Shown here in pieces: positions 8,649 to 51,659 of a stretch of DNA of 64,000 nt. Within the stretch, counting starts at the first letter, position 1. Every line of letters starts with the position of its first letter. The position numbers and the translations under genes were made by a program. The notes below the pieces were generated by a model, which saw only the letters and a list, made by a program, of their open reading frames with translations, did no database searches and was not told the origin of the DNA. Origin of the DNA: Candidatus Falkowbacteria bacterium (GTDB lineage Bacteria; Patescibacteriota; Patescibacteriia; Patescibacteriales; WJLG01); contig CAVVFV010000008.1 of NCBI GenBank assembly GCA_963747695.1, positions 203,592-267,591 on the forward strand, given 5' to 3'.

Positions 8649-8700
8649 AATTCGCGTTTTTCGCGGCATTCGCATTCATTCGTAGATTCGCATCATATAT
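8649..8700. repeat. B'-family half element
   Basis: aattcgcgtttttcgcggcattcgcattcattcgtagattcgcatcatatat runs into rplQ ATG; near-identical copy at 37033-37089. Confidence 0.65.
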
Positions 8701-9051
8701 ATGAGACACCGCAATAAGAATAAAATTTTGGATAGAAAAAGAGGCCCGCGCGCCGCGCTTTTGAAGGGATTAGCTTCCAGCGTTTTGATATACGAAAAAG
8801 TCGAAACCACGGAAGCCAAGGCGAAAGTCGTCAGATCTCAAGTTGAGAAAATGATCACTTTGGCCAAAAACAACGATTTGGCCTCGACGAAGAAATTGAT
8901 TTCCTCCTTGCCGCAAAAGATGGCGGTTTTGAAATCGATCGAAGTTTTGCGCGAAAGATATAAAGACAGAACCGGCGGTTACACCAGAATCATTAAATTA
9001 AATTCTCGCCCCGGCGATGGCGCCAAGATGGTACAACTCGAGTTAGTCTAA
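8701..9051 (+). CDS. rplQ: 50S ribosomal protein L17
   Basis: MRHRNKNKILDRKRGPRAALLKGLASSVL... GGYTRIIKLNSRPGDGAKMV. Confidence 0.9.
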   Translation: MRHRNKNKILDRKRGPRAALLKGLASSVLIYEKVETTEAKAKVVRSQVEKMITLAKNNDLASTKKLISSLPQKMAVLKSIEVLRERYKDRTGGYTRIIKLNSRPGDGAKMVQLELV

Positions 9052-9068
9052 AAGATAAATTTGGTTAT

Positions 9069-9186
9069 ATAATACGAATACCACGAATTATACGCGAATA
9101 CTACGAACGGCAAACGGAAACGAATAATTCGTTAAATAGTTCGCGGTATCGCGAAAAATTAGTAGTATTCGCATCATGATATTTAT
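9069..9186. repeat. B-family ~120-bp palindromic element
   Basis: aatacgaataccacgaatt...cgcgaatactacgaa ... ttcgcggtatcgcgaaaaattagtagtattcgcatcat; homologous to 34863-34980 and 51541-51659. Confidence 0.75.
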
Positions 9187-9534
9187 ATGGAAAGAAAGTT
9201 ACACATAATTGACGCGGAAGGAAAAGCGATCGGCCGTCTGGCTACTCAGATTGCCACGATTTTACGCGGCAAAAATAAAGTTTCTTATCGTCCTCATCTG
9301 GACGAGGGCGATTGCGTCCAAGTGATCAATGCCGATAAGGTCAAGATCACCGGCAAGAAATTGCAACAGAAGAAATATTATCGCGTTTCCCAATATCCGG
9401 GCGGTCTTAAGGAAACCAGCTTGGAAGAATTGATGGCCAAAAAACCCGGCGAGGCTTTGAAAAAAGCGGTCAAGCAGATGCTGCCGAACACCAAATTGCG
9501 CCCGGGAATGTTAAAAAGATTGATTATTAAGTAA
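9187..9534 (+). CDS. rplM: 50S ribosomal protein L13 (short, 115 aa)
   Basis: IIDAEGKAIGRLATQIATILRGKNK...GGLKE...AVKQMLPNTKL. Confidence 0.9.
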   Translation: MERKLHIIDAEGKAIGRLATQIATILRGKNKVSYRPHLDEGDCVQVINADKVKITGKKLQQKKYYRVSQYPGGLKETSLEELMAKKPGEALKKAVKQMLPNTKLRPGMLKRLIIK

Positions 9535-9610
9535 ATTTTGATAAATTCTATAATCCAAATCTAAAAAAATTCGTGGATTTGGATGAATTTGTAGATTAGG
9601 ATTATATTTT

Positions 9611-10099
9611 ATGCCTACGAAAAAGACAACCAAGAAGTCCGAAGCGGCTGCTCCTAATGTTGCTCCGCATAAAGAAGTCGCGGAAGTTAAGGAAGAAATC
9701 TCTTCGACTAAAGGAAAATATATCAAGGCCATCGGCCGCCGCAAGACCGCCTCGGCTCAGGTTCGCGTTTATCTTACCGGTAAAGGTGAAATTATTGTTA
9801 ACGGCAAACCGGTGGAGAAATATTTTGATGAAGACCGCGCCGCCATCTGCGTTCAGCCTTTAAAATTGACCGGTGTTGGCAAGGATGTGGATATTTCCGT
9901 CTTGTGCAAAGGCGGCGGAGTCAACTCCCAAGCCGAAGCGATGCGCCATGGTCTGGCCCGCGTCCTGATCCTTTTGGATCCGGAATTGAACGGGGCGATC
10001 CGCGCCAAAGGCTGGATGACCCGCGACTCCCGCAAGGTGGAAAGAAAGAAACCTGGTCTTAAGAAAGCCAGAAGAGCTCCGCAATGGAGCAAGCGCTAA
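9611..10099 (+). CDS. rpsI: 30S ribosomal protein S9 with ~30-aa N-terminal extension
   Basis: AIGRRKTASAQVRVY...GGGVNSQAEAMRHGLARVL...DSRKVERKKPGLKKARRAPQWSKR. Confidence 0.9.
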   Translation: MPTKKTTKKSEAAAPNVAPHKEVAEVKEEISSTKGKYIKAIGRRKTASAQVRVYLTGKGEIIVNGKPVEKYFDEDRAAICVQPLKLTGVGKDVDISVLCKGGGVNSQAEAMRHGLARVLILLDPELNGAIRAKGWMTRDSRKVERKKPGLKKARRAPQWSKR

Positions 10100-10122
10100 T
10101 CCTATACTTAGTTTACGTATTC

Positions 10123-10153
10123 AAAAACAGCGGGTTTTATCCCGCTGTTTTTT
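10123..10153 (+). terminator. rho-independent terminator after rpsI
   Basis: aaaaacagcggg / cccgctgttttt stem, T-run 10148-10153. Confidence 0.8.
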
Positions 10154-10155
10154 GT

Positions 10156-10163
10156 GCTATAAT
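10156..10163 (+). promoter_or_regulatory. extended -10 box (TGcTATAAT) 10 nt before ATG 10174: near-leaderless transcript
   Basis: tgctataat read at 10155-10163; no room for an SD. Confidence 0.4.
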
Positions 10164-10173
10164 ATAACCACCT

Positions 10174-10899
10174 ATGGATACTTTAGATGAAGAGGCATTC
10201 AGGTTTGTAAAAAAGAATAAAAAAGAAATAATTAAAAAGTTTGCTAGCACAGACCTTTATCTGGAAAACGACGAACCGTCTTTTTATTTTATGGCAGGAT
10301 GTCCTGGTGCCGGAAAGACCGAATTTTGCAAAGGATTTATCCAGATATTGTCAGAGCAGGGTCTTTCGAGTAAGGGAATTTTACGAATTGACCCCGATGA
10401 TATTAGGGAGATTTTTAGAGATAGAGGATATAACGGAGTAAATTCCGATTTATTTAAAAGATCGTGTGTTAAGGCGGTAGAAATTCTTTATGACACCGCA
10501 ATATCTAGAAAATTAAATACCATCTTTGACGGAACTTTTCATAACCTCGAAAGTTCCTCAAGGAATATAAGCAGGGCAATTGATGTTGGGGCAAATGTAA
10601 GCATTTTTTATATTTATCAAGATCCAATCATTGCTTGGGAATTTTCAAAAATCAGAGAAAGAAAAGAAGGCAGGATTGTGCCAAAGAAATTTTTTATTGA
10701 AGCTTTTTTTAAGTCAAAAGATAATGTTAATAATATTAAGCAATTATACGGAAATAAGGTGGTGGTCACTTTGATTAATAAAAAAGCCAATAATATTAAT
10801 TTTGAATCAAAGTTTAATATTGATAAGATTGACAATTATCTTAAAGTAAGCTATACTCCCGAAGACTTGGAACAAGTCATTAAGGAAATAAATATATGA
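10174..10899 (+). CDS. zeta-toxin/AAA_33-type P-loop kinase
   Basis: Walker A FYFMAGCPGAGKTEF, then RIDPDDIRE and FDGTF blocks typical of zeta-like kinases. Confidence 0.65.
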   Translation: MDTLDEEAFRFVKKNKKEIIKKFASTDLYLENDEPSFYFMAGCPGAGKTEFCKGFIQILSEQGLSSKGILRIDPDDIREIFRDRGYNGVNSDLFKRSCVKAVEILYDTAISRKLNTIFDGTFHNLESSSRNISRAIDVGANVSIFYIYQDPIIAWEFSKIRERKEGRIVPKKFFIEAFFKSKDNVNNIKQLYGNKVVVTLINKKANNINFESKFNIDKIDNYLKVSYTPEDLEQVIKEINI

Positions 10900-11066
10900 T
10901 ATTTTTTAGAAAAAAAGCTAAAGACATAAACTTTTCCAGCCTAAAGGCCGGGGAAAAGGTAAAAATAATCAAGAGGGCTGTCGAGGTTTCGAACCGGGAG
11001 CAACTCGATGTGATAAGAAAATACGGTGATACTCAGGCTACCCGCGGTTTTTGTGATTGTAAATAA
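10896..11066 (+). CDS. 56-aa ORF translationally coupled (ATGA overlap) to the zeta-like kinase
   Basis: Own translation MIFFRKKAKDINFSSLKAGEKVKIIKRAVEVSNREQLDVIRKYGDTQATRGFCDCK; followed by a terminator. Confidence 0.4.
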   Translation: MIFFRKKAKDINFSSLKAGEKVKIIKRAVEVSNREQLDVIRKYGDTQATRGFCDCK

Positions 11067-11090
11067 TTTTTTTTTGAGATTATAAAATAG

Positions 11091-11119
11091 AAACGCTACC
11101 CTCGGGGAAGCGTTTTTTG
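11091..11119 (+). terminator. rho-independent terminator
   Basis: aaacgctaccc / ggggaagcgttt imperfect stem + T6. Confidence 0.6.
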
Positions 11120-11126
11120 TTTGGGA

Positions 11127-11155
11127 TTGACAATGTTACTTTAAAAGCGTAATTT
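11127..11155 (+). promoter_or_regulatory. sigma70-like promoter candidate
   Basis: TTGACA 11127-11132, 17-nt spacer, TAATTT 11150-11155. Confidence 0.5.
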
Positions 11156-11193
11156 GGAGCTACCAACGAACATTCAAATTTTAAGGGAGGAAA

Positions 11194-11844
11194 ATGGATA
11201 CTGAGACAAACAAAAGAATGTGTGACCTGATCGGTCGAGAGGCGTTTGCCATTATGGGCAAAATGCTCACGCAGGAGAAGCTTGATGAGTGGCCGGAAAA
11301 TGATTCCGCCGATTCATATTTGATGGAAATAAAAATGCTCCGCCAGCGTCTGCTGCAGAGTTTTTTCTTCAACAGTTTCCCTGCCATCGTCGATTACCGC
11401 GCCGAATTGAAAGATTTCATCCGGCCGCCGGCTTTCCAGGTCAATACGTCGAGTATCGTGTTTGAGCGTTTTGAAAAGATCATCGAGCAGAAGAAAGGGG
11501 TTGAATTCGGTTTTTTCTTTTTGCCTTACGAACTGCGCACGGATAATGTTATCACCGAAATGAGAAAAAGGAATTTGCGGCCGGCTAATCTGCAGGAACT
11601 TTTATACTTCTCCCGAAAATACGTCCGCTTGCTCAAATTCTTTGAATTAAGCAGTCCGTCGGCCAATTATCAAATAAGAGACTATGTTTTTTTTGCCCGG
11701 ACCAAGTATGGCTCGCCGTTTACCGAGGGAGGAAAACCCTATGTCGAAGTCGGAGCCTTTTCCCATTATAGAGAACCTAAAGAAAAGATCATTTGGTATC
11801 CGGACGTTCAGGTAATCCTCGGCGTCTATCGGTCGGTTGCCTGA
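11194..11844 (+). CDS. hypothetical cytoplasmic protein (216 aa)
   Basis: Intact ORF, strong SD aagggagg, own terminator; no motif recognised. Confidence 0.5.
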   Translation: MDTETNKRMCDLIGREAFAIMGKMLTQEKLDEWPENDSADSYLMEIKMLRQRLLQSFFFNSFPAIVDYRAELKDFIRPPAFQVNTSSIVFERFEKIIEQKKGVEFGFFFLPYELRTDNVITEMRKRNLRPANLQELLYFSRKYVRLLKFFELSSPSANYQIRDYVFFARTKYGSPFTEGGKPYVEVGAFSHYREPKEKIIWYPDVQVILGVYRSVA

Positions 11845-11860
11845 TTCATTTTTTCCATCC

Positions 11861-11890
11861 GACAGTCCCTGCAAAGGACTGTCTTTTTTT
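11861..11890 (+). terminator. rho-independent terminator
   Basis: gacagtcc / ggactgtc stem + T7. Confidence 0.85.
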
Positions 11891-11936
11891 GGTAAATTAT
11901 TCCCGCGGCCGAGCCCTGGGCGACACCGCCGGTTGA

Positions 11937-11964
11937 TTGACATTTTCATATTTTGTGTTATATT
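11937..11964 (+). promoter_or_regulatory. sigma70-like promoter candidate
   Basis: TTGACA 11937-11942, 16-nt spacer, TATATT 11959-11964. Confidence 0.45.
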
Positions 11965-12013
11965 CAATGGTTCTCTGTGGTTCGTTCTTTTCATCAAAAG
12001 GGAGGATTAATTC

Positions 12014-12811
12014 ATGCGCAGTCTGATATTTTTGCCCGTAATTTTGTCTTTCTCCATCTTCGGCGTTTTCGGCGATGGGGCGGGAAATAAATTCGGATTG
12101 AAAAAATGTTTTCAGGAGATCAGTCTGGTAAATCCGAGCGGGGATTACCTGTACTATCAGCTTAAATCCGGCTATCATAACCAGGTCGTTGCCCTGGATG
12201 GTTTCGGGATCACTCAGTCGATGCCGGAAAGAACAGCGCTGGTTTCCGAACTGGATATTTTTAAGAAATGGAGCCTGCGCAAATTTGATTATCTTCGCCC
12301 CAATCAGGTTGATGAGTTTTATCGTCGCGCTGATGAAATCGCTTTAAGCGTCAGTGGCAAGCAGATTCCCGAATTTGACCGACGTGAGGCACTGATGATT
12401 TTAGTCAAAGTATTGCGACGGCAGTTGGTAGATTTTCCGGATAGCAACCGGACGGAAGTGAAAAGCTTGATCGGCAATCTGACAGTATCCGAATATTTCC
12501 TATCCGGCGCGAGTCGAGTGCAATATTATTGCGTTTACGTTGCTTGGTCGGCGGTGTTAATCTTTGACCATTGGAAAAAGATCAATCCGAATTTAGCCGG
12601 CGTCGATTTGTTCGAGTTTTCGATCGATCATCCGGCTCATTCGCTGAATTTGATAACCGAGCAGACTGCCGCCGGGACTAAACTGTATTTTGTGGATTTT
12701 CTCCGCGACCAATTTTGGGATTGTGGCCGTAGTTTTATAGCATCAGATCCCGACGTTTGGTCTCAAATTGAAATGCGCGACGGAATGATCGACCGCGCTT
12801 TTTCAGAGTAA
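12014..12811 (+). CDS. hypothetical exported protein (265 aa)
   Basis: Signal-like N-terminus MRSLIFLPVILSFSIFGVFG; SD gggagg; own terminator. Confidence 0.5.
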   Translation: MRSLIFLPVILSFSIFGVFGDGAGNKFGLKKCFQEISLVNPSGDYLYYQLKSGYHNQVVALDGFGITQSMPERTALVSELDIFKKWSLRKFDYLRPNQVDEFYRRADEIALSVSGKQIPEFDRREALMILVKVLRRQLVDFPDSNRTEVKSLIGNLTVSEYFLSGASRVQYYCVYVAWSAVLIFDHWKKINPNLAGVDLFEFSIDHPAHSLNLITEQTAAGTKLYFVDFLRDQFWDCGRSFIASDPDVWSQIEMRDGMIDRAFSE

Positions 12812-12820
12812 TACCTTAGC

Positions 12821-12854
12821 GGCAGAGTCTTTCACCAAGACTCTGCCTTTTTTT
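12821..12854 (+). terminator. rho-independent terminator
   Basis: ggcagagtct / agactctgcc stem + T7; stem is the same ggcagagtc word used at 26751-26953 and 63124-63217. Confidence 0.85.
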
Positions 12855-12929
12855 AACTCTTTCAATTTTCGTAAATTTTTGCTAAAGTTATAGAATAATA
12901 CAATTTTTAATTTTTAACTTTTAATTGAC

Positions 12930-13736
12930 GTGATCGGTGTCTTTGATTCCGGCGTTGGTGGTTTGACCGTCTTAAAATCGTTGCTGAAGCAGCTGCCTAA
13001 TTATGATTATATCTATTTAGGCGATAATGCCCGCACGCCCTACGGAAATAAAACCAAAGAGGAAGTCTATGAATATACCCGTCAGGCGGTTGATTTTTTG
13101 TTTAAGCAAGGCTGCGATCTGATCATCGTCGCTTGTAATACGGCATCGGCTTTGGCCTTAAGAAAAATCCAGCAAGAATATCTGCCCAAAAAATATCCTG
13201 GTAAGAAGATTCTCGGCGTGGTCCGGCCGATGGCCGAGGCGATCGCCAAGAATCATCACACCAAAAAAATCGGCATCATCGGCACCAAGGCGACGATCAA
13301 ATCAAAAATTTACCCCAAAGAAATCAAGGCGCTTAATAATAAATTGAAAATTTATTGCCAGAGCGCGCCGCTGCTCGTGCCTTTGATCGAGTCCGGGTGG
13401 GACGATCCCCGAGAAGTTAAGGAAACAATTGAGAAATATTTGAAACCGTTGAAAAAGGCCAAGATTGACTTATTGGTTTTGGGATGTACTCATTATCCAT
13501 ACCTAGAAAAGCAGATTTGCCAGACAATGGGCAAGGGCTGTAAGATTTATAATTCAGGGGAGATCGTGGCTAAAAGTTTGAAGGATTACTTGAAGAGGCA
13601 CAAGGAATTGGCGATAATCCATCACGTGAAGCCCAGAATAATTTTTTATACCACCGGCGGAGTCGGGATGTTCAAGCTATTGGGTGATCGGTTTTTGGGA
13701 AGAAAGATTGAAAATATACAGAGAATAAAGTTATAA
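12930..13736 (+). CDS. murI: glutamate racemase
   Basis: IGVFDSGVGGLTVL, IVACNTASA, LGCTHYP catalytic-cysteine motifs; GTG start. Confidence 0.9.
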   Translation: MIGVFDSGVGGLTVLKSLLKQLPNYDYIYLGDNARTPYGNKTKEEVYEYTRQAVDFLFKQGCDLIIVACNTASALALRKIQQEYLPKKYPGKKILGVVRPMAEAIAKNHHTKKIGIIGTKATIKSKIYPKEIKALNNKLKIYCQSAPLLVPLIESGWDDPREVKETIEKYLKPLKKAKIDLLVLGCTHYPYLEKQICQTMGKGCKIYNSGEIVAKSLKDYLKRHKELAIIHHVKPRIIFYTTGGVGMFKLLGDRFLGRKIENIQRIKL

Positions 13737-13831
13737 TATTCAATATCAAATAATAAATAACCAAAAAATATTTAAATATTAAAATATTATATTATTGTTT
13801 TGAGTATTGGATATTGGTTATTTGATATTTG
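13737..13831. repeat. word palindrome, aataaataacc / atattaaa words
   Basis: caaataataaataaccaa ... ttggttatttgatatttg; sister copy 38871-38965. Confidence 0.65.
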
Positions 13832-13854
13832 TCGACTGAACCCAAAAAATAATT

Positions 13855-14946: not shown

Positions 14947-14961
14947 AAGTATTTCGTCATG

Positions 14962-15088: not shown

Positions 15089-15093
15089 AAAAG

Positions 15094-16620
15094 ATGAAGA
15101 GGAGGGTCGTTATTTTTGTTGCCTGCTGGTTTCTGGCCGGCGGCATAGTTTTAGCTTCGTTTTTGCCGAAAGACTGGATGTACTTCGGCCTTTATTATTT
15201 TAGCGCCCTAATATTTTTCTTGGTTCTTGCGGCCTGGTTTTGGCGAAAGAAGAATGCGCGTGCCATTTTAATTTGGGCGGCTTTTTTATTTTTCGGTATT
15301 TGGCGATTTGCCGTCAGTTTGCCGGTCGATTCGTCGGATAAGATTTGGTTTTACAACGGCCATAAAATCGAATTCATCGGCGTGGTGGCCGGCGAACCGG
15401 CGGCGCGAGGCAAGAATCAAGAGTTGGAAATGAAAAGTTTGGCAACGGCCCCCCTCCTTTTTAAGGAGGGGTCTGGGGGTGGTTCGGAACGAATAGTTGA
15501 AGGGAAAGTTTTAGTGATGGCAGCGCTTTATCCGCAATATGATTACGGCGAAGTTTTGCGAATCACCTGCAAATTGAAGCGGCCGCAAAATTTTGACGGT
15601 TTCGATTACGAAAAATATCTGGCAGCGCAGGGAATCTATTCGACCTGCAGTTTTCCGCAGATTGAAATTCTGCCCGATAAATTTTTGTCGCCGCCGGTCT
15701 TGGCGGAGAAAAAAAGCTTATCGCGTTTTAGCTGGCTGTGGGGTGGAATTTTTTATGTCCGGGAAAAATTAAGCGCCACAATCGACAGCGGTCTGACCGA
15801 ACCCGAGGCCGGCCTGCTCAAAGCTTTTTTGTTGAACGATCCGACCGTGCCTGACGATTTGAACATTTCTTTCCGCCAGAGCGGCTTGGCGCATATCGTC
15901 GCGATTTCCGGCTCGCACATCTCGGAGCTGATCGGCATCATTTTTTTCTGCCTGTTGTTTTTCGGTTTGAACCGTCGCCATGCTTTCTGGTTCTGCGTGC
16001 CGGTGATAATTTTTTACGTGGCGATGATCGGCGCTCCGGCTTCGGCTCTGCGAGCGGGGATAATGGGATTTTTAGTTTTATTGGCAATGTATTTGGGGCG
16101 CTTGGCGCGATTGGATTATACTTTAGCGCTGGCCGCAGCCGGCATGCTGTTAATTAATCCGCTGCTGGTGATCGCTGATGCCGGATTTCAGTTATCCTTC
16201 TTGGCGGTTTTGGGAATGATCTATCTTTATCCGGTTTTTGATCAATGGCTTGCGAGGTTTTACGAAAACAAAAATTCAACCACCCCCAGACCCCTCCTTG
16301 GAAAGGAGGGGAGTTTGCCGCAACGCGTCATTAAAATAATTTGCCAGACGGCCGCGCTGACGATCGCCGCCCAGGTTTTTACCGCGCCGATTTTGATTTT
16401 TGGGTTTCACCAAATTTCCCTGGTTGCGCCGATTGCCAACTTGTTCGCGCTTTGGTCCGCGCCGTTCATTATGATTTCCGCCTTCATTGCCATGACCGTA
16501 TCGGCAATAATGCCAGCCGGCGCGGTCTATTTTTTCCTGCCCACTGATATTTTAGTTAAATATCTTATCGCCGTAGCGCAAATTTCCGCCAGCTTGCCGT
16601 TCGCTTATTGGAAATTTTAG
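15094..16620 (+). CDS. comEC: ComEC/Rec2-family DNA internalisation channel (no metallo-beta-lactamase domain)
   Basis: Polytopic; competence-domain block FRQSGLAHIVAISGSHIS; carries two in-frame hairpin elements. Confidence 0.8.
   Translation: MKRRVVIFVACWFLAGGIVLASFLPKDWMYFGLYYFSALIFFLVLAAWFWRKKNARAILIWAAFLFFGIWRFAVSLPVDSSDKIWFYNGHKIEFIGVVAGEPAARGKNQELEMKSLATAPLLFKEGSGGGSERIVEGKVLVMAALYPQYDYGEVLRITCKLKRPQNFDGFDYEKYLAAQGIYSTCSFPQIEILPDKFLSPPVLAEKKSLSRFSWLWGGIFYVREKLSATIDSGLTEPEAGLLKAFLLNDPTVPDDLNISFRQSGLAHIVAISGSHISELIGIIFFCLLFFGLNRRHAFWFCVPVIIFYVAMIGAPASALRAGIMGFLVLLAMYLGRLARLDYTLALAAAGMLLINPLLVIADAGFQLSFLAVLGMIYLYPVFDQWLARFYENKNSTTPRPLLGKEGSLPQRVIKIICQTAALTIAAQVFTAPILIFGFHQISLVAPIANLFALWSAPFIMISAFIAMTVSAIMPAGAVYFFLPTDILVKYLIAVAQISASLPFAYWKF
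15451..15484 (-). repeat. K-family GC-rich hairpin element inside comEC (inverted copy)
   Basis: cccctcctttttaaggaggggtctgggggtggtt; its reverse complement differs from 16278-16311 at 2 loop bases only. Confidence 0.85.
16278..16311 (+). repeat. K-family GC-rich hairpin element inside comEC
   Basis: aaccacccccagacccctccttggaaaggagggg; encodes TTPRPLLGKEGS in frame. Confidence 0.85.
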
Positions 16621-24425: not shown

Positions 24426-24737
24426 AAAATTCACCTCTCGAGAGGGGTGGACTCGCGTCGCGCGAGGACGGGGTGTGTTACTGCAGGTTATTAAGGTCAA
24501 AAACATTTGCTACTTTTTTTAAAAAAAGTAGCACAAAAAACTGCTCGCAGGAGAAATTTTGGGACGCTCCGCTATCCCGCCGAGGCGGGACTAGCAAAAT
24601 TTCAAACTTGCTCGCTAGACGCTCGCTCAGACAGTGAAATTTTGCACGGCTTCTACGCTGCGTGATTACGGAAATTTTCCAATGCGCGCTACAAAGAAGT
24701 AAATTAATTTTGATAAATAAAAAAAGCGCCCGAACTC
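24424..24737 (+). repeat. J-repeat copy A (~0.3 kb structured direct repeat)
   Basis: Starts in the stop codon of the upstream gene; shares long blocks with 30721-31075 (tttgcYacttttttt aaaaaaagtRgc, ctccgctatcccgcc, aattttgcacggcttc, cgtgattacggaaattttccaatgcgcgctacaa). Confidence 0.85.
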
Positions 24738-30722: not shown

Positions 30723-31075
30723 AAAATTCCCCTCTTGGGAGGGGTGCCGAGCCCGGCGAATAGGTGCGGGTTTATTCCCGACATTATTTCAAATATCTTT
30801 GCCACTTTTTTTAAAAAAAGTGGCGCAAAAAATCGCGCGCTGGACAAATTTCCTATCACTCCGCTATCCCGCCAATGCGGGACTAGCAAAATTGCTATAC
30901 TTGTCCCGCTTTTATTAATAATATTATAATAAGGAGGCGGGACTTCGAACAACGCAATTTTGCACGGCTTCCCTGTCCCGCCAGCGGCGGTGATACGCTT
31001 CGTGATTACGGAAATTTTCCAATGCGCGCTACAAGGAAATTTATTATTTTGACAAATAAAAAAGCGCCGGAACTC
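30721..31075 (+). repeat. J-repeat copy B
   Basis: Starts in the stop codon of the Pat-like gene; collinear with 24424-24737, with one extra inner hairpin gtcccgc...gcgggac. Confidence 0.85.
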
Positions 31076-31348: not shown

Positions 31349-33001
31349 ATGTGGGAATCGATTAAGAAAAATAGGGAAATCGCGGTTTTTATCGCATTTT
31401 TAATCATCGGGTTGGCTGTTTACGCCAACTCTTTTGGCAACCAGTTTTTTTGGGATGATAATGACGAGATCGTTAATAATATTTACGTCCAGCATTTTGA
31501 TGTCAGCAAGATGTTTTCGCAGAGCATGATTTCCGGCGCCGGGCAAACCGATAATTATTACCGGCCGATCCTGCTTTTGTCGTACGCCGTGGATTATCAG
31601 CTTTGGGGAATGAATCCGTTCGGTTTCAATCTGATCGATGTGCTGCTGCACATCTTTAACGCGTGGCTGATTTTTATTTTATTATATTTCCTTTTGTCGT
31701 TGCGGCAAACCGCGTCCACTGAACCACCCTCCAACTCCTCCTTTGAGAGGAAGGGGGTTTGGCTGGCGTTTTTGCCGGCGCTGATTTTTTTGGTTCACCC
31801 GCTAAACACCGAAGCGGTCGATTATGTTTCCGGGCGAGCCGACGTCTTGTACGCTTTTTGGGCGCTTTTATCGCTTTTATTCTATTATTATTTTTTTCAA
31901 GCCAAAAACGTCAAGGGTAAGATCATCAACTATTCGGTCGCGGTGGTTTTTTTTATTTTTTCCCTGCTTACCAAAGAAACGGCTGTCGTGCTGCCGTTCC
32001 TGGCCGTGCTGATGGAGTTGGTTTTCCTGGCCAAGGGTGATTGGCGGACCAAAACGAAAACGGCCGCCAAAAATTCCTGGCCGTTTTTTTTGGTTTTAGC
32101 AGTTTATCTCCTGCTGCATTTGACGGTTTTTAATTTCAGCCATCTGGCCGGCGTTCCGATCGGTTGTCAGGGGGAATATTGCTCTTTCGGGATCGTTAAG
32201 CGGTTTTTGGTTTTCGGATCGGTGACCTTGAATTATTTTCAGATTTTATTCGTGCCGCTCGGTTTACATATGGAAAGGGCGGTGACGGAGTTCGGTTCGG
32301 TTTATTCCTGGAAAACTCTGGCGGCCTGGTTCGCCGTGCTGGTCTGGGCGGCGGTAGCGGTCATCTTTTGGAAAAAATCCCGGAGCATCGCCTTCGGATT
32401 ATTTTGGTTCTTCATCCTGCTGCTGCCGACTTCGGGAATCTTAGTCAGGATGAATTATCCGACCTACGAGCATTTTCTTTATCTGCCGATGATCGGATTT
32501 TGGCTGGCCCTCGGCGGCTTGATCTGCCTCGCCGCTGATAACCTTAAAAACGACCGGGTTTTACTCTTGGCGAAGATATTATTTTATGTTATGCTAAGCG
32601 CTTGTGTGGTTTTTTGGGGAATCCTGACGATCCGGCGCAACTTGATCTGGCATGATCCGATAACTTTCTACGAAAATAATTTAAAGTATTCGCCGCAGAG
32701 TTTTATCGAGCATACTAATCTGGGAATCGCTTACGATAATGCCGGACGACCAACCGAAGCGATAGCCCAATATCGCCAAGCGATTGGCATTGATGATGTT
32801 TATCCGCAAGTGCATTACGATCTGGCCAACGCTCTGGTGGGAGCGCAACAATACGACCAGGCGGAAAAGGAATATTTGCTCGCCATCGCCATGGATCCGG
32901 AATTTATTTTGCCTTACCGGAGTTTATATGATTTGTATAGTTATTTAGGGGAGAAGGATGAGGCAGGAGAAATTTTAAAAAAGATGCCCGGCAATAATTA
33001 A
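31349..33001 (+). CDS. GT-C-like membrane glycosyltransferase with C-terminal TPR repeats (TMTC/PMT_2-like)
   Basis: First loop FFWDDNDEI ... NYYRPILLLSY; about 11 TM spans; TPR tail YDNAGRPTEAIAQYRQAIGIDD...YDQAEKEYLLAIAMDP. Confidence 0.7.
   Translation: MWESIKKNREIAVFIAFLIIGLAVYANSFGNQFFWDDNDEIVNNIYVQHFDVSKMFSQSMISGAGQTDNYYRPILLLSYAVDYQLWGMNPFGFNLIDVLLHIFNAWLIFILLYFLLSLRQTASTEPPSNSSFERKGVWLAFLPALIFLVHPLNTEAVDYVSGRADVLYAFWALLSLLFYYYFFQAKNVKGKIINYSVAVVFFIFSLLTKETAVVLPFLAVLMELVFLAKGDWRTKTKTAAKNSWPFFLVLAVYLLLHLTVFNFSHLAGVPIGCQGEYCSFGIVKRFLVFGSVTLNYFQILFVPLGLHMERAVTEFGSVYSWKTLAAWFAVLVWAAVAVIFWKKSRSIAFGLFWFFILLLPTSGILVRMNYPTYEHFLYLPMIGFWLALGGLICLAADNLKNDRVLLLAKILFYVMLSACVVFWGILTIRRNLIWHDPITFYENNLKYSPQSFIEHTNLGIAYDNAGRPTEAIAQYRQAIGIDDVYPQVHYDLANALVGAQQYDQAEKEYLLAIAMDPEFILPYRSLYDLYSYLGEKDEAGEILKKMPGNN
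31722..31757 (+). repeat. diverged K-family element inside the TPR-glycosyltransferase
   Basis: aaccaccctccaactcctcctttgagaggaaggggg versus consensus aaccaccccNagNcccctccttNNaaaggagggg. Confidence 0.5.
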
Positions 33002-34771: not shown

Positions 34772-34862
34772 AAATTACTAATCATCCATTAATAAAGGGC
34801 ATCTTGAAAAAGTGCCTTTTTTATTGATTGACCTTTAGTAAAAAAAACCGTAGTATAATAAT

Positions 34863-34980
34863 ATGATGCGAATACTACGAATTGTTCGCGAATACTACAA
34901 ATTAATTTAACGAATTAATATAGAATAATTCGATAAATAGTTCGCTGTATTCGCGAAAAATTTGTAGTATTCGCATTATG
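34863..34980. repeat. B-family ~120-bp palindromic element
   Basis: atgatgcgaatactacgaattgttcgcgaatactac ... gtattcgcgaaaaatttgtagtattcgcattat; 7 nt before lepA ATG. Confidence 0.8.
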
Positions 34981-34987
34981 TTTATTT

Positions 34988-36773
34988 ATGAAAAATATCA
35001 GAAACTTCTGTATTATCGCCCATATCGACCACGGCAAATCCACTTTTTCCGACCGGCTTTTAGAATTGACCGGTACGATCGAGAAGCGGAAAATGCGCGA
35101 ACAGTTTCTGGATAAATTGGATCTGGAGCGCGAGCGCGGCATCACCATCAAATTGAAACCCGTCACCATGCATTGGGAAGGGTATATTTTGAATCTTATT
35201 GACACGCCCGGGCACGTGGATTTTTCTTATGAAGTTTCCCGGTCGCTCGCGGCCGTCGAAGGTGCAATTCTCTTAATTGACGCCACGCAAGGGATCCAGG
35301 CCCAGACGCTCGCTAATTTATATCTCGCGATGAAAGAGGATCTGACCGTCATTCCGGTGATCAATAAGATCGATCTGCCGGCGGCCGATGTGCCGAAAGT
35401 GAAACAAGAAATAATCCATTTGATGGGCTGCAAGGATGAGGAGATTTTATTGGCTTCAGGAAAAACCGGCGAGGGCGTGGAAAAAGTTTTGCGGGAAGTG
35501 ATCGCCAAAGTTCCGGCCCCGGATCCGTCCCGCGAGGGGAATCCGACGCGGGCGCTGATTTTTGATTCCAATTACGACGAATATAAGGGCGTGGTGGCGC
35601 ATGTCCGGGTGATGGACGGCGCTTTCAAAAAAGGCGACAAGATAAAATTATATAACACTAAAACGGTCAGCGAAGTTTTGGACATTGGTATCTTTAATCC
35701 CGAATACCAACCGACCGGTGACTTGAGTACCGGCGAAGTCGGATATCTGGTTACCAGCTACAAAAATGTTACCGAGTGTGCGGTCGGCGATACGGTCACG
35801 ACCGTGGCGGACTTTGAGAAGATTGAACCGTTGAAAGGCTATGAAAAAGTCAACCCGATGGTTTTTGCCGGAGTTTTTCCTCGCGAGGGCGATGATTTTC
35901 AGGCACTGCGCGAAGCCATGGACCGCTTTAAGTTGAATGACGCCTCGCTTTCTTATGAACCGGAACATTCCGAAGCCTTGGGTTTTGGTTTTCGCTGCGG
36001 CTTCTTGGGATTATTGCATTTGGAAATTTTTCAGGAACGTCTTTCGAGAGAATTCAATCTGGACCTGATCGTTACCGTGCCGTCAGTAGCTTATAAAGTT
36101 TATAAACGGAATGGCGAGGAAGTGATCATCCGCACGCCGCAAAAATTGCCCAATCCGACCGAGATCGATCATGTTGAAGAGCCTTGGGTGGCCCTGGACG
36201 TGGTTGTGCCCAAAGAGTATATCGGCAAAGTTATGGAGTTGGCCGTGGATAAAAAAGGAATTTATAAAAATACCGAATATTTGGACGAGTCGAGAGTGAT
36301 TATGCATTATGATCTGCCGATGGCTTCGATCCTCACTGATTTTTATGATAAGATAAAAAGCGCCAGTTCCGGCTTTGCTTCGATCAATTACGATTTTTTG
36401 GATTATCGGCCGGCCAAAGTCGTCCGCCTGGATATCTTGGTAGCTGAAGAGCCGATTGAAGCATTATCGACGATCGTTTATGAAGATGATGCATTCCGTT
36501 CCGGACGCGCCGTAGTGGAAATTTTGAAAGATACTTTGTCGCGGCAGATGTTCGTCGTCAAATTGCAGGCGGCGGTGCAGGGGAAAGATCATCGCTTCGG
36601 AAAGATTGTCGGCTTTGCGCAAAGATGTTACCGCCAAATTATACGGCGGCGACGTTTCCCGCAAGCGCAAGCTTTTGGAAAAACAAAAAAAGGGCAAGAA
36701 GAAGATGATGGCCGCCGGGCGGGGATCGGTGGAGATACCACCGGAGACGTTCGTGAGGATATTAAAAAAATAA
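34988..36773 (+). CDS. lepA: elongation factor 4 (LepA); frame broken once near the 3' end as assembled
   Basis: G1 [10 protein letters not shown]3 DTPGHVDF. Conserved C-terminus [41 protein letters not shown]...[11 protein letters not shown] is in the +1 frame from the GGGG run 36580-36583 and stops at 36771-36773. The ORF-track tail to 36820 is out-of-frame read-through. Confidence 0.85.
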
Positions 36774-36780
36774 AAAAAAT

Positions 36781-36890
36781 AATCCGAACCCACAAAATAT
36801 CGCGAATACTACGAACATGATAACGAATTGATAAGTTCGGTTCGATAAAAGTTCGCAGTATTAGCGCATATAATTCGTAGTATTCGGATT
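36781..36890. repeat. B-family variant element
   Basis: aatccgaa...cgcgaatactacgaac ... ttcgtagtattcggatt. Confidence 0.6.
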
Positions 36891-36903
36891 ATATTATAAT
36901 AAT

Positions 36904-37008
36904 ATGATCAAGAGAAAAACAATAGTCAAAGTCGTTTGGATTTTCATCTCTTTCATGGTTATCTTTTCCATGGTCGCCTGGACCGTAGGAACTTCATTTA
37001 CGAGATAA
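36904..37008 (+). CDS. possible 34-aa membrane peptide
   Basis: Own translation MIKRKTIVKVVWIFISFMVIFSMVAWTVGTSFTR; sits between two B-family elements. Confidence 0.25.
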   Translation: MIKRKTIVKVVWIFISFMVIFSMVAWTVGTSFTR

Positions 37009-37032
37009 AATTTGCTGATGAGAATAAATTAT

Positions 37033-37089
37033 ATTCGATTCGCGGTTTTCGCGGCATTCGCATAAATTCGCAGATTCGCATCATATTTT
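37033..37089. repeat. B'-family half element
   Basis: attcgattcgcggttttcgcggcattcgcataaattcgcagattcgcatcatatttt runs into recJ ATG; twin of 8649-8700. Confidence 0.65.
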
Positions 37090-38870
37090 ATGAATAAGAT
37101 CTGGCAAATCGCGCCCAAAATCCGCGAAGGATTTTTCAAGAAATTTCCCGAATACGACCGGGTGATTTTGCAATTGCTGCATAACCGCGGTTTAAGAGAG
37201 AGCGAGGAGATGGATCTTTTTTTGCACGGACATTTTGAAAATAATTTCAGTCCCTTCTTATTCAATAAGATGGAAGAGGCGATCAATCTGACTATCACTC
37301 ATATCAAAGCGGGTGATAAGATTTGCATTTATGGCGATTACGATGCTGACGGTATGACCGCTTCGGCTCTCTTGGCTGAGGTGTTGGCGACTTTGCGCGC
37401 TGACTGTTTCGTTTATATTCCTGACCGCGGTAGCGAAGGATATGGCTTGCATCGGGAGGCGATCGACAAGGCGATAAAAAAAGGAGCGAAGCTTTTAATA
37501 ACCGTCGACGGCGGCATCCGCAATAAGGGCGAAGTCGAATACGCCCGAGCTCGCGGGCTGGAAACAATCATCACCGATCATCATACCCCGCCGGAGTCTT
37601 CAGCCAATCTGCCCGATTGTCTTGATCGTCAATCCGCACCTCAAAGGAGAAAAATATCCTTTTAAGTTCTTGGCCGGAGTCGGCGTGGCTTTCAAATTTT
37701 CCCAGGCCTTGGTGGAGCGGTCGAAATTGAACGCCGAGCAGAAAAAGAAAATTTTGGAAAAAACTTTGGACTTGGTGGCGATCGGCACCGTGGCCGATTG
37801 CGTCACTTTACTGGGAGAAAACCGGCTGCTTTTAAAAAAAGGACTGGAAATTTTAAACGAGACTAAAAGAGTCGGTTTGAAAGAATTGATGAAGGCGGCC
37901 AAGATCGAGGGCAGGCAGCTGGAGGCTTGGAATATCGGTTTTCAGATCGCGCCCCGGCTTAACGCTTCGAGTCGGATGGGTTCGGCCGGCAATGCCTACA
38001 ATCTGCTTTCGACCAAGGATAAGAATGAGGCGGAAAAAGAAGCGCAATTGCTGAACGATCGCAATCTGCGGCGGCAGAAGGAAACGGAAGAGATCGTCGC
38101 CGAGGTGGAGTTGCAGATCAAAAAGCAGTTCGAAGAAAAAATTATCATCGGCATCTGTCCGGAAAAAGCCAAGCCGTGGAACGAAGGGATCGTCGGTCTG
38201 GTAGCCGGCCGGATTGCCGAAAAATATTATAAGCCGACTTTGATCATTACTAAATCGGAAAAAGGGTTCAAGGGTTCTGGCCGTTCGATCGAAGAATTCA
38301 ATCTATTCAAAGCAATCGAAGAAGCCGGAGATTTGCTGGGCAATCACGGCGGGCATCCGATGGCCGTCGGTTTCAATGCCAGCGAGGCTAACCTTCATCT
38401 TTTCGCCGAAAAGATCAGAAAAATCGCCAAACGAGATTTGGGTCACTTGCAGCTCGAGCCGAAATTGAAGATCGACTGTGAAATCATCCTCGAGGATGCC
38501 AGCCGCGACTTTTTATCGCGAAGTCCAGAGATTGGCGCCGTTCGGCCAGCATAATCCCGAACCGAAATTTTTGAGTGAAAATATCCAGATTAAGGATATG
38601 ATGAAAATGGGGGCGAACGGCCAGCATATTAAATTCCGTTTTGGCCTGCCGATGGCTGCGGGCAGGCGGTCTGGGGGGATCGGCTTTAATCATGCCGAGG
38701 AATGGGCGGATTTCAAGATCGGTGATTTGGTCGACGCGGTTTATACTTTGGACGAGAATGAATTCAACGGCAATACCAGCCTGCAATTCAAATTGATCGA
38801 TCTGAAATTGCACGGCAGCGAGTTGATCAAGAAAGGACATTGGTCGGCGGAGACGGTATATATAGATTGA
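37090..38870 (+). CDS. recJ: single-stranded-DNA-specific exonuclease RecJ; two frame breaks as assembled
   Basis: DHH motifs IYGDYDADGMTAS, ITVDGG, ITDHHTP; DHHA1 GGHPMAVG. Track pieces 37090-37665, 37622-38554 and 38478-38870 join into ~590 aa if one nt is skipped at ~37621 and one T of T5 38510-38514. Confidence 0.85.
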
Positions 38871-46296: not shown

Positions 46297-46473
46297 ATGA
46301 TGGAAAACAAAAAAAGCTCAGTTTCACCGGCCATTTTTTTCGGCGCAATCAGTGTTCTTGTCCGAGTCTTGTTTTACGGCTCAATTCTGGGATCGCTCGT
46401 TCTGCTGGAAATTTTGGTTATTAATCCGATCAAAAACATGTTTCAACGGGTATTTTTCGGGAAAAGCGGCTAA
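46297..46473 (+). CDS. possible 58-aa membrane peptide
   Basis: ATG 46297 behind SD aggaggg; MMENKKSSVSPAIFFGAISVLVRVLFYGSILGSLVLLEILVI; hairpin over the stop. Confidence 0.4.
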   Translation: MMENKKSSVSPAIFFGAISVLVRVLFYGSILGSLVLLEILVINPIKNMFQRVFFGKSG

Positions 46474-46498
46474 TTGGCGGCCGCTTTTATATTTGCTA

Positions 46499-46527
46499 TT
46501 GACTTTTTAACATATTTGTTATATAAT
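46499..46527 (+). promoter_or_regulatory. consensus-like sigma70 promoter
   Basis: TTGACT 46499-46504, 17-nt spacer, TATAAT 46522-46527. Confidence 0.55.
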
Positions 46528-46578
46528 ATAATTTAGCTCATTGTTAATATTCCATAATCTTTACCGAAAGGACATTCC

Positions 46579-46839
46579 GTGAAAAAAATGAAGCAAAGGA
46601 TCGACAGGCTGACCGCGAAGATTACCGACAAGATTGGCGTAAAAACCATGGCCATCTTACTCGTCAATGCAATCTTTGCCTCCGCCTGGTTGGTCTGCCA
46701 GAATGATCTCTCGAAATACGGAGTCAGCGCCTATGCTGTGGCCAGCGTTTTGGCCTTGGCCATCGCGGCGCTTCCAGCCATGGACAACATCACGCTTGAT
46801 GATCTGGTCCTGACGCCTCCCGAGATTACGGAAAAATAA
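46579..46839 (+). CDS. hypothetical two-helix membrane protein (86 aa)
   Basis: GTG start (ATG 46588 alternative); followed by a terminator. Confidence 0.45.
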   Translation: MKKMKQRIDRLTAKITDKIGVKTMAILLVNAIFASAWLVCQNDLSKYGVSAYAVASVLALAIAALPAMDNITLDDLVLTPPEITEK

Positions 46840-46859
46840 GTTCAAAAACATCTCAAACG

Positions 46860-46892
46860 AAGGCGGCTGATAAATTTATCGGTCGCCTTTTT
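46860..46892 (+). terminator. rho-independent terminator
   Basis: aggcggctgata / tatcggtcgcct stem + T5. Confidence 0.65.
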
Positions 46893-46958
46893 CATTTGCA
46901 ATTTGCCGATTTTTCAGCTAAAATGATAAGTGAATAATCTAGTATTCGGTATTTTTTT

Positions 46959-49811
<2,853 letters not shown>

Positions 49812-49822
49812 TTATCAAAGAA

Positions 49823-50263
49823 ATGGCAGCTAAAAAGGATTATTCAGTCGCGAGCGTAATTGCAATTTATTTTTTACTCTCCAGCCTGCTGATTTGGTTC
49901 TTCCGCCATTTTCTTTATGCCTTGATATCTTTACCTTCGGCAAGTTTCGTTTTCGACGAACGATCTATCTATTATTTGTATTATCTTGCGGTAATTATTG
50001 CGGTTTTAGCGAGTTGTCCGCTCGGTTGCCGGATCGCGGCCGCTTTAGTGAAGAATAAATATAAAAAAGAGGCCGGTGGAAAAATCGTCCTCGTTTCCGC
50101 GGCGCTTTATATCGTTTTAACTTTAGGCGTCTTGATAAATAATTCATTGAAGCGGGGGAAAATCGACCTGGATTTCTTCTTTGGCGTCGCAGTCTTTGTC
50201 GTTATGAATGTTTTATATTATTTTTTTACCAGATTATACATCGGCCGAAATTTTTTAAAATAA
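49823..50263 (+). CDS. hypothetical four-helix membrane protein (146 aa)
   Basis: Intact ORF 11 nt after leuS; hydrophobic spans. Confidence 0.5.
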   Translation: MAAKKDYSVASVIAIYFLLSSLLIWFFRHFLYALISLPSASFVFDERSIYYLYYLAVIIAVLASCPLGCRIAAALVKNKYKKEAGGKIVLVSAALYIVLTLGVLINNSLKRGKIDLDFFFGVAVFVVMNVLYYFFTRLYIGRNFLK

Positions 50264-50298
50264 ATTTTTAATTTTGCATTTTTAATTTTTGATTGATT

Positions 50299-51537
50299 AT
50301 GTTCCGTTCCATCAATCTTAAAGGCCGGCTGTCCGGCGGTTTGGTTGCCATTTATTCCTCGCGGATGATTTTGAATATCGGCTCTTCGCTGATGGGTCTC
50401 TTTCTGCCGATTTTTTTATTTCAGGTTTTCGGTTCCAAGTTGAGCTATACGCTGATTTATTTTCTCATCTATTACTCTTCTTATTTTTTCTTGGTGGCTG
50501 TGGGCGCCAAATTTTCGCTCAATCGAGCCGGGATAAAATGGGCCATCATCATCAGTACGATCTTCGGCGCCGTTTACTTCGTCATCCTTTATTTCATCAC
50601 CGGTCCGCGGGGGATGATCGAAACGGCGGCCGGGATGAATCACACCAGCGTTTTGATCTTTTTGGGCATTTCGATTATGTTCACGGCGCTGCAGGATCTG
50701 ACCTATTGGGTTCCGGTGCATACCGAGATGTCCAAGTTCACCGATCGAGCGAACCGCGCTAAACAATTATCCTTTCTCGAGTCGAGTTCGATCGCCTTCA
50801 ATGCGATCGGCCCGCTTTTTGCCGGCTGGATTTTGTTGACTTCCGGCTACAATATCCTCTTTGCCATCACGGTTTTTATTACTATCCTTTCGATCGTGCC
50901 GCTGTTCTATCTGCCTCCGACTGAAGAAAGGTTCAGCTGGACTTACCGGGAGACCTGGAAAGAATTATTTTCCAAAAAAAGGCAGAAAGCCGTCCTGGCC
51001 TTTATGGGCGATGGCGCCGAGAATGTCGTTTCCGGCATCGTCTGGCCGATTTTTATCTGGGAAATCCTCAAGGGAAATTATTTTTCGGTTGGCGCGATTT
51101 CGTCCCTGATAGTTTTATCGACGATTATTTTGGAATTGCTGGTCGGCAAATACGCCGACTCGGCGCGGCGCGGCAAAATTCTGCACTGGGGAACGGTTCT
51201 CTATGCCCTGGGCTGGCTGATTAAGATTTTTATCGACACGGCTTTCCAGATTTTCATCGTCAGCACTTATCATAACCTGGTCCGCCTTTTTACCCGCACG
51301 CCGTTCGACACCTTGCTTTATGAGCACGCCGCCGACCAGGGGCATTATGTCGATGAATATACCGTGATCCATGAAATGGCCTTGATGATCGGCCGGATCC
51401 TGATCATCCTGCTGATCTTGATTCTGGTGCCGCTGTTCGGGATCGGCACGACTTTTATTTTGGCGGCTATCGCGACCCTGTTAATGAATTTTTTGGTCGA
51501 CGAAAAAACCGTTCAGGAAATCAAAGCGAGAATATAA
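50299..51537 (+). CDS. MFS-type transporter
   Basis: About 12 hydrophobic spans in 6+6 arrangement with a central charged loop; ATG 50299 preferred over TTG 50293. Confidence 0.6.
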   Translation: MFRSINLKGRLSGGLVAIYSSRMILNIGSSLMGLFLPIFLFQVFGSKLSYTLIYFLIYYSSYFFLVAVGAKFSLNRAGIKWAIIISTIFGAVYFVILYFITGPRGMIETAAGMNHTSVLIFLGISIMFTALQDLTYWVPVHTEMSKFTDRANRAKQLSFLESSSIAFNAIGPLFAGWILLTSGYNILFAITVFITILSIVPLFYLPPTEERFSWTYRETWKELFSKKRQKAVLAFMGDGAENVVSGIVWPIFIWEILKGNYFSVGAISSLIVLSTIILELLVGKYADSARRGKILHWGTVLYALGWLIKIFIDTAFQIFIVSTYHNLVRLFTRTPFDTLLYEHAADQGHYVDEYTVIHEMALMIGRILIILLILILVPLFGIGTTFILAAIATLLMNFLVDEKTVQEIKARI

Positions 51538-51540
51538 ACT

Positions 51541-51659
51541 TGATGCGAATACTACAAATTTTGCGCGAATACCGCGAATAAATTAACGAATTATCTAAAA
51601 ATAATTCGCTAAATAGTTCGTAGTATTCGCGAACAATTCGTAGGTTCGCATCATATTTT
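51541..51659. repeat. B-family ~120-bp palindromic element
   Basis: tgatgcgaatactacaaattttgcgcgaataccgcgaat ... ttcgtagtattcgcgaacaattcgtaggttcgcatcatatttt runs into rsmA ATG. Confidence 0.8.

Follow-up and report, generated by a model that had tools for sequence, protein, structure and literature searches.

A dispersed palindromic repeat, probably REPIN- or MITE-like, in the minute gene spacers of a Falkowbacteria-related lineage

Genes and palindromic elements of the window

The DNA analysed here (64,000 nt of a Candidatus Falkowbacteria bacterium, contig CAVVFV010000008.1 of assembly GCA_963747695.1, positions 203,592 to 267,591; hereafter, in its full length, the window) carries ribosomal-protein genes and, further along, murJ, lepA, a recJ-like gene and rsmA. 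Several of these genes are closely preceded by members of a family of ~120-bp palindromic elements, which we call B and whose origin and role are the subject of this study. Pfam matches were obtained for rpoA, rplQ, rplM, murJ, lepA, rsmA, rpsM, rpsK and the recJ-like DHH/DHHA1 gene.

A preliminary description of this DNA had reported full copies of the element before rplM, lepA and rsmA. Reading of the sequence and nhmmer searches with a profile built from the full copies confirmed all three, none of which is assigned to a strand. The first (9063..9182; E-value ~1e-24 to 1e-27) fills the spacer between the rplQ stop codon at 9051 and the rplM ATG at 9187. The second (34860..34982; E ~1e-33) forms lepA's 5′ untranslated region (UTR), the ATG being at 34988, and the third (51538..51659; E ~1e-32) reaches from the stop codon of the open reading frame (ORF) at 50293-51537 to the rsmA ATG at 51660. 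The rsmA ortholog in the relative L023 also has an upstream B copy, of a different form. A diverged copy, likewise without strand, is found at 36778..36896 (E ~1e-17); its left arm supplies the final ~13 codons of lepA, which stops at 36820, and its right end is 11 nt from a 34-aa ORF at 36904-37008.

Two further copies on the forward strand consist of the right arm only. One, at 8649..8700 (E=1e-5), is made of direct TTCGC repeats and ends 4 nt before the rplQ ATG (8701); the other, at 37030..37089 (E=9e-7 for 37030-37088), ends 5 nt before the recJ-like ATG (37090). The profile thus recovered three of the four half or variant copies listed in the preliminary description (8649-8700, 37033-37089 and 36781-36890), whereas the fourth, a hairpin at 5985-6050, was not recovered by the B profile and is a separate element of CGAAT units. 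It occupies 5987..6049 of the rpsM|rpsK spacer (no strand assigned), 34 nt from the rpsK ATG, and its motif is related to B; the comparison with the relative L016 gives ~91% identity by eye (62/68) for the hairpin and a computed identity of 76% for the whole spacer.

That the element ends within a few nucleotides of the start codons of rplQ, rplM, lepA, recJ and rsmA is borne out by the measured gaps between the terminal CATYAT and the ATG, which are 4, 9, 8, 5 and 5 nt, respectively, and 11 nt for the 34-aa ORF. No GGAGG or GAGG precedes any of these six window starts.

Two side observations concern the genes flanking the diverged copy. LepA homologues all align over just 87% of the query, which indicates a C-terminal tail that is unusually variable in the clade. 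The 34-aa ORF between lepA and recJ encodes a hydrophobic membrane micropeptide (MIKRKTIVKVVWIFISFMVIFSMVAWTVGTSFTR); L010 has a conserved counterpart, and L069 has a called gene of 36 aa in this position.

Anatomy and predicted folding

B is a non-coding, imperfect palindrome of ~120-135 bp, the consensus of which is a near-perfect palindrome. Each arm comprises ~2.5 copies of a 20-nt unit, GCGAATACTACGAAYTnTTy, with an TTCGCGAA core that is itself a local palindrome, and GTAG recurs in the arms, GTAGTATTCGC being present twice in each. Across copies, conservation is at least 90% in the outer ~36 nt of both arms, which form terminal inverted repeats; the inner part and the loop are variable. 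The termini are asymmetric: one end reads ...TTCGCATCATG, and the opposite end reads ...TTCGCATTATATA, after which (C)CC and a stretch rich in A/T usually come. An apparent "tail" of ~13 nt at the ATTATATA end is in part native spacer, as seen by comparison with the empty site of L065. Some copies hold nested small GC-rich palindromes.

B copies of L004 (~270-290), L009 (~1365-1385), L059 (~1385-1400) and L007 (~560-580 and ~1965-1985) contain a very small nested palindrome, CCTGCCTGCCGGCAGGCAGG. It also occurs at the centre of hairpins of the AATTTTGA family and resembles a minute mobile insert in its behaviour. The left arm was also considered as the site of a conserved upstream ORF, which was rejected, as the stops in the ATG frame vary and the rplM copy lacks an ATG.

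Compared with shuffled sequences, the lepA and rsmA copies are predicted to fold strongly (z = -10.6 and -10.3), the diverged copy less so (z = -5.5) and the rplM copy weakly on the sense strand (z = -2.9). In the predicted folds of the lepA and rsmA copies, the AUG and ~6-9 nt 5′ of it are unpaired, and the rplM copy is paired almost to the AUG. The arm-only copies fold no better than shuffles (z = +0.45 for 8649..8700 and -0.78 for 37030..37089), and therefore form no long hairpin. The earlier proposal that the 3′ arm would be sequestered in a long hairpin if the full element is transcribed is retained as a prediction for full copies.

The terminator scanner called no intrinsic terminator, the mark of which is a short GC-rich stem with a U-tract right behind it, at B elements; the stems of B are long and rich in A and U, and a U-rich run follows only some of the ends. 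A search of the window against Rfam gave 0 matches at the gathering score, and the sub-threshold matches were to generic miRNA-precursor hairpins only, on both strands.

Distribution of B across genomes

The census was seeded with an exact 22-base B pattern, run on GTDB genomes, metagenomes and viral contigs. It yielded 14 loci in GTDB genomes, 13 of them in one metagenome-assembled genome (MAG) and 1 in a Falkowbacteria MAG, and 47 loci in metagenomes. The viral contigs gave no match to this pattern, leaving a phage origin unsupported. The MAG with 13 loci is labelled 'Candidatus Nanoarchaeia archaeon'; it carries a bacterial small-subunit rRNA (L014 3252-4232, DATJQC010000010.1), its coding DNA is ~80% identical to the window, and it is probably a mislabelled bacterium of the Candidate Phyla Radiation (CPR). 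Homologues of ribosomal protein L13 and of LepA are labelled Patescibacteria or Falkowbacteria, and one Logan contig matches part of the window at 100% identity.

Profile searches and removal of duplicates left 48 unique full copies in the window and its Falkowbacteria-related relatives. The majority (35) lie between a stop and a start codon, five between two stops and two between two starts. Distances from the TTCGC anchor have a median of 17 nt to the ATG versus 19 nt to the stop codon (Mann-Whitney p=1.0). The tail-less end is ~10 nt from whichever codon it faces and the other end ~22-25 nt, and either end may face the downstream gene, both orientations being present. Since B fills the entire spacer, its proximity to start codons is real but not specific, and the special relation to start codons that had been suspected is not supported by these copies.

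Genes found 3′ of B in the relatives include recR, a GT4 glycosyltransferase, POR-gamma, RNase H, atpF, a SpoU methylase and others, and none of them is a gene that B precedes in the window. We rejected a regulon on account of these differing downstream genes; a directional function of B is unsupported, given both orientations to the downstream gene.

Occupied and empty orthologous sites

The relatives for site comparisons were fetched with L13 or LepA proteins, which makes the set unbiased as to B. The rplQ|rplM spacer holds B in the window, where it measures 135 nt, and in L016, where it measures 136 nt. It contains no B and is only 10 nt long in L017 (TAA-ATATAATTTT-ATG), 23 nt in L065, ~7 nt in L066 and 22 nt in the contig P0011; for the contig P0020, a length of 82 nt is known from the gene table only.

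The lepA site gives a similar picture. The lepA promoter (TTGACC-17-TAnTAT) is retained in all relatives compared. In L067-L070, the distance from the -10 box to the ATG is ~17-60 nt, corresponding to leaders of roughly 10-50 nt, none with B, and in the window and L031 the element is inserted directly after the -10 box. The empty sites are AU-rich and devoid of a Shine-Dalgarno (SD) sequence, like the residual nucleotides between B and the ATG. A gene-specific or housekeeping role of B is therefore not supported: in relatives the element precedes unrelated genes, and both sites are empty in several of them.

Sites with arm-only copies in the window are variable as well. The rpoA|rplQ spacer has another hairpin in L016 and is a 31-nt spacer in L017, and the site 5′ of recJ has a hairpin of CATGTA units in the L010 ortholog. 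More generally, neighbouring spacers hold different hairpin families in different genomes (rpoA|rplQ, rplM|rpsI, recJ|rnhA and three spacers at 43-44 kb).

Promoters, leaders and initiation regions

Directly upstream of the lepA copy, on the forward strand, the murJ terminator (GGGCATCTTGAAAAAGTGCC and a T-run) is followed by the lepA promoter (34797..34856). The terminator was called at 34797-34822 and the promoter, TTGACC-17-TAGTAT at 34828-34856, is conserved in five relatives, with the same order of promoter and B in L031. Because this conserved promoter stands immediately 5′ of the element, B would constitute essentially the whole lepA 5′ UTR.

The situation differs in the ribosomal-protein operon. 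A strong sigma70-type promoter (TTGACA-17-TACAAT, 4975..5003, forward strand) before infA is conserved in L016 and L017 and probably drives infA-rpmJ-rpsM-rpsK-rpsD-rpoA-rplQ-rplM-rpsI. A scan of 4.8-10.3 kb found no other strong promoter on the forward strand, and the hairpins between rpsM, rpsK, rpsD, rpoA, rplQ, rplM and rpsI are therefore most simply intercistronic, as the B copies at 8649 and 9063 would be. The preliminary description had the element supply the whole 5′ UTR, which fits lepA and not these two copies. Judged from its positions, B must in either case be transcribed, as leader or as intercistronic RNA.

The same description had placed a possible promoter within the element. 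Scans of the gene-proximal (right) arms for sigma70-type promoters found no site, and match counts were not above those in shuffles. Canonical TTGACA-17-TATAAT promoters, conserved between species, are found elsewhere, as are canonical terminators in the window, and the genes that follow these signals often have GGAGG. Overall, GGAGG or GAGG precedes ~5 of the ~45 ATG genes of the window, and since SD sequences are this rare genome-wide, their absence at B-adjoining starts, although correctly noted, is the rule in this genome and no trait of B. The AU-rich tract preceding the ATG, which resembles native spacer at empty sites, does not appear to be brought by the element: to judge by the sequence, B supplies neither promoter nor ribosome-binding site and the tract is the native initiation region.

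Conservation of shared copies

The B copy in the rplQ|rplM spacer is identical at 126 of 136 positions (93%) between the window and L016, compared with an identity of 0.61 at 4-fold sites (n=510). The lepA-leader copy, for which the L031 sequence came from a pattern search favouring conserved copies, so that the rplM pair alone, with clearly copy-specific features, is fully unbiased, is identical to L031 at 117 of 127 positions (92%), compared with 0.60 at 4-fold sites (n=140). Binomial tests against the 4-fold sites of the flanking genes gave p ~1e-16 to 1e-17.

Two trivial causes of this similarity were considered. Concerted homogenisation was rejected, as paralogs in the window are only 73-84% identical to each other whereas orthologs are 91-92% identical in the same comparison; across all B paralogs, the average is 78%. 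A recent recombination tract is disfavoured, though not fully, as the peak of identity coincides with the element and identity falls to 0.68 just upstream.

Shared copies at 92-93% identity, set against ~60% at 4-fold sites, thus indicate constraint in situ that is independent of orientation. The fixed copies have probably acquired a role that does not depend on orientation, the most likely candidates being an mRNA stem-loop (5′ or intercistronic, acting in stability or processing) or an array of protein-binding sites.

Sister hairpin families

B is one of many families of long, AT-rich hairpins in the window spacers, with arms built of 7-10-nt units such as ATTGYTAT, AACTAATT, TAATTTA and AAATCCGA. 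A catalogue based on minimum free energies proved too noisy, and we used inverted-repeat alignment instead; it detected a strong inverted repeat in 21 of the 38 co-directional window spacers of at least 45 nt.

One such hairpin, directly after alaS (4863-4960), is kept in five species (window, L016, L017, L065 and L066) with a conserved loop. Its 7-nt units change in concert in both arms (ATTATAA/ATTACAA/ATGCTAA/ATGATAA), with compensatory changes in 10 of 30 pairs. This is probably a structure in terminator position that evolves by slippage and palindrome correction. Another, 5′ of rpsI (9549-9606, …GGATTTGGATGAATTTGTAGATTAGGATTAT), shares its family with the hairpin that L016 (7631-7759) and L017 (3986-4111) have in the rpsK|rpsD spacer. 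In the window it has ATTTT on either side, and in L017 the empty site has the sequence TAA-ATTTT-ATG; a 5-bp target duplication may be present here, seen only for this non-B family.

Several other repeats were noted. A GC-rich palindrome (CCCCTCCTTGGAAAGGAGGGG with flanks) lies in frame within three ORFs, comEC and two others (16284-16319, 31728-31763 and 49441-49476), much as Rickettsia palindromic elements insert within genes; in relatives, GC-rich palindromes of a related kind occur inside B copies, and in L016 they take up the rplM|rpsI spacer. An array of TAACTAAT octamers (5544-5583) ends 3-4 nt before the rpsM ATG, and a GC-rich intergenic block of ~230-270 nt is duplicated at 24497-24723 and 30789-31063 with 82-83% identity. 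Among the coding sequences, the recJ-like gene is frameshifted (37590-37665) into ORFs 37090-37665 and 37622-38554, where its orthologs in relatives are single ORFs of ~590 aa; it could be a pseudogene, a sequencing error or a case of recoding.

Relation to known repeat systems

Repetitive extragenic palindromic (REP) systems are recognised by a short imperfect palindrome with a GT[AG]G head and a cognate, single-copy REP-associated tyrosine transposase (RAYT; Y1/HUH) flanked by repeats. Published work describes the REPs and REPINs, their paired forms, of Pseudomonas and Enterobacteria as extragenic, non-coding repeats of high copy number, with inverted modules that form a hairpin of ~100 nt, are mobilised by RAYTs, produce no target-site duplication and persist for long times by vertical inheritance (PMC3337134, PMC3116915, bioRxiv 10.1101/2022.05.22.493013). 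B resembles REPINs in its two conserved inverted modules forming a hairpin, its extragenic location, its many copies, the lack of an evident target-site duplication, its long-lasting vertical transmission and the GTAG in its arms. It differs in that its arms are composed of 20-nt sub-repeats and not of a single short REP hairpin, in its asymmetric ends and in its CPR host, the tiny spacers of which cause B copies to abut both start and stop codons.

A second group for comparison are MITEs (miniature inverted-repeat transposable elements) of the Correia and ERIC type. In published accounts, these are palindromes of ~100-160 bp located next to genes, co-transcribed as hairpins, able to alter adjacent expression and variable in presence between related genomes; the Correia elements of Neisseria (CREE) have promoters at their ends and an integration host factor (IHF) site, duplicate a TA target and are substrates of RNase III (PMC2649163; PMC2229807; PMC10969869). 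B shares the palindrome next to genes, the terminal inverted repeats and the variable presence. In contrast to CREE, no promoter-like end and no target duplication were found for it. No insertion-sequence partner was seen in the window or the loci, although no dedicated whole-genome search was made.

The TAACTGA heptamer direct repeats of Beggiatoaceae and cyanobacteria lie a few nucleotides before starts of genes at which canonical SD sequences are rare, occur in ribosomal-protein operons and have no functional theme downstream (MacGregor 2015, PMC4679880). Arm-only B copies resemble them, as does the TAACTAAT array ahead of rpsM. They are, however, simple tandem heptamers lacking dyad symmetry; B is a palindrome of defined length, ~120 bp, and has a consensus over all of it. 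Mycobacterial interspersed repetitive units (MIRU) are reportedly intercistronic operon repeats that touch the flanking stop and start codons, are arranged in direct tandem and contain small ORFs overlapping their neighbours. B is similar in having its ends near the flanking stop and start codons, but it is palindromic and has no conserved ORF. Membership of B in the REPIN/RAYT, Correia/ERIC MITE, TAACTGA-repeat or MIRU systems is unproven, because no RAYT, no duplication, no end promoter and no conserved ORF were found.

Interpretation

We consider it probable, at roughly 0.6, that B is a dispersed REPIN/MITE-like repeat of a Falkowbacteria-related lineage of the CPR (Patescibacteria), which inserted into tiny spacers and whose fixed copies came under constraint. 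The copies arose, as the comparison of occupied and empty sites shows, by insertion into AU-rich, SD-less spacers of ~5-30 nt, reaching from a stop codon or -10 box to the next start. As these spacers are very short, a surviving copy ends within a few nucleotides of an ATG and has its other side near a stop codon or promoter. Insertion into such minute spacers explains the adjacency to start codons, the missing SD sequences and the unrelated "housekeeping" genes downstream. Once inserted, B would be transcribed within the mRNA, as the whole 5′ UTR of lepA or as an intercistronic spacer in operons such as rplQ-rplM, and full copies are predicted to fold into a hairpin of roughly 50 bp. Fixed copies, which appear to evolve much more slowly than synonymous sites, would have acquired a role.

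Several observations weigh against this interpretation. Strong conservation in situ is unlike what is predicted for a purely selfish, decaying repeat, and the conservation test itself comprises one unbiased ortholog pair (rplM) and one pair retrieved by pattern (lepA). No RAYT or transposase was identified, a crude regular-expression search for HUH motifs over 399 kb of sampled sequence being negative, and the flanks of 18 B copies, aligned at fixed anchors, showed no consistent target-site duplication. The gene calls in the census followed simple ORF rules. At the RNA level, arm mismatches on the sense strand are not biased towards G.U over A.C (56 vs 72 in B and 84 vs 102 across all families), so an RNA-level role of B is unproven. 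RNAalifold on 28 B paralogs found 1 compensatory pair among 32, nearly all pairs being invariant, and thus no covariation. The invariant pairs argue neither for nor against structure. Fixed mismatches in the B arms showed no phasing on either strand.

A possible, though rather doubtful, alternative is that B acts as DNA, as an array of phased 20-bp binding sites with TTCGCGAA cores, 2.5 per arm and inverted, which could be bound by a regulator, a nucleoid protein, a transposase-derived protein or a protein of uptake or recombination and whose sequence would be kept constant by selection or molecular drive. Such an array would accommodate the conservation of at least 90% in the outer ~36 nt of each arm among paralogs, the mirrored variable positions without covariation, the strand-neutral mismatches, the random orientation to genes and the conservation of whole elements between orthologs far above synonymous sites; ComEC, moreover, is encoded in the window. 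However, no candidate protein was found, copies broken by nested insertions as well as arm-only copies persist, the loop is conserved in orthologs although it lies outside the repeats, and the strictly extragenic location fits tolerance of insertions as well as function.

Equally tentative is a broader proposal, in which B and its many sister families of hairpins with periodic arms would serve, under selection, as a layer of gene punctuation specific to this lineage of Falkowbacteria-like CPR bacteria. Its modules, constrained in sequence and set precisely between stop and start, would be the target of a dedicated protein or undergo RNA processing. They would give order to transcription units or to translation independent of SD sequences, and would be lost by replacement and not by decay.

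We regard it as quite unlikely that B is a cassette of promoter and 5′ UTR, formed by the right arm and the AU-rich tract, in which for example CATCAT, lying 4-9 nt from the ATG, would serve as a -10 box for leaderless or nearly leaderless mRNAs, and transcription of the left arm would lead to sequestration in the hairpin. CATYAT does keep A2 and T6 of the -10 hexamer, the distance from TTCGC to the ATG clusters near 10 nt for tail-less ends facing starts, and the arm-only copies before rplQ and recJ retain exactly the CATYAT end; the gene at 10174, with a TATAAT just 10 nt before its ATG, makes transcripts with short leaders plausible. Yet no sigma70-like site was called in the right arms, the best -35/-10 combination found by hand matching at ~7/12 and thus below the threshold of the scanner, and the clade uses and conserves canonical TTGACA-17-TATAAT promoters, one of them upstream of the lepA copy. 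Further, the tail-less end is equally near to stop codons (median 9 vs 10 nt), either end can face a gene, and relatives express the same genes without B.

Least probable of all is punctuation at the RNA level, where the stem would bring the stop codon beside the AUG for SD-independent re-initiation or coupling, or would divide operon mRNAs into segments as a processing site of the RNase III type or a stabilising site: the elements take up nearly the whole distance between stop and start, leaving ~0-20 nt at either side, strong inverted repeats are frequent in co-directional spacers, the alaS|infA sister hairpin has its compensatory changes in five species, and the AUG with ~6-9 nt before it is unpaired in the predicted lepA and rsmA folds, but the same operon in relatives has spacers of 5-40 nt without hairpins, B shows neither compensatory changes nor a sense-strand G.U bias, arm-only copies cannot form the stem, and the lepA copy follows a promoter and not a stop codon.

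Implications

CPR bacteria (Patescibacteria) have small, tightly packed genomes and their expression signals are almost unstudied. About 11% of the window is intergenic, and much of this consists of repeat families forming long hairpins. Such repeats enter spacers of 5-30 nt without abolishing the expression of SD-less ribosomal-protein, lepA and rsmA genes, and some B copies evolve six- to seven-fold more slowly than synonymous sites. If this constraint does not reflect function, B would still be useful for strain typing, for the annotation of start codons and for the study of SD-less initiation with a 50-bp stem 5-9 nt before the AUG. If it does, B points to a new system, acting at the level of RNA or DNA, in an uncultured phylum.

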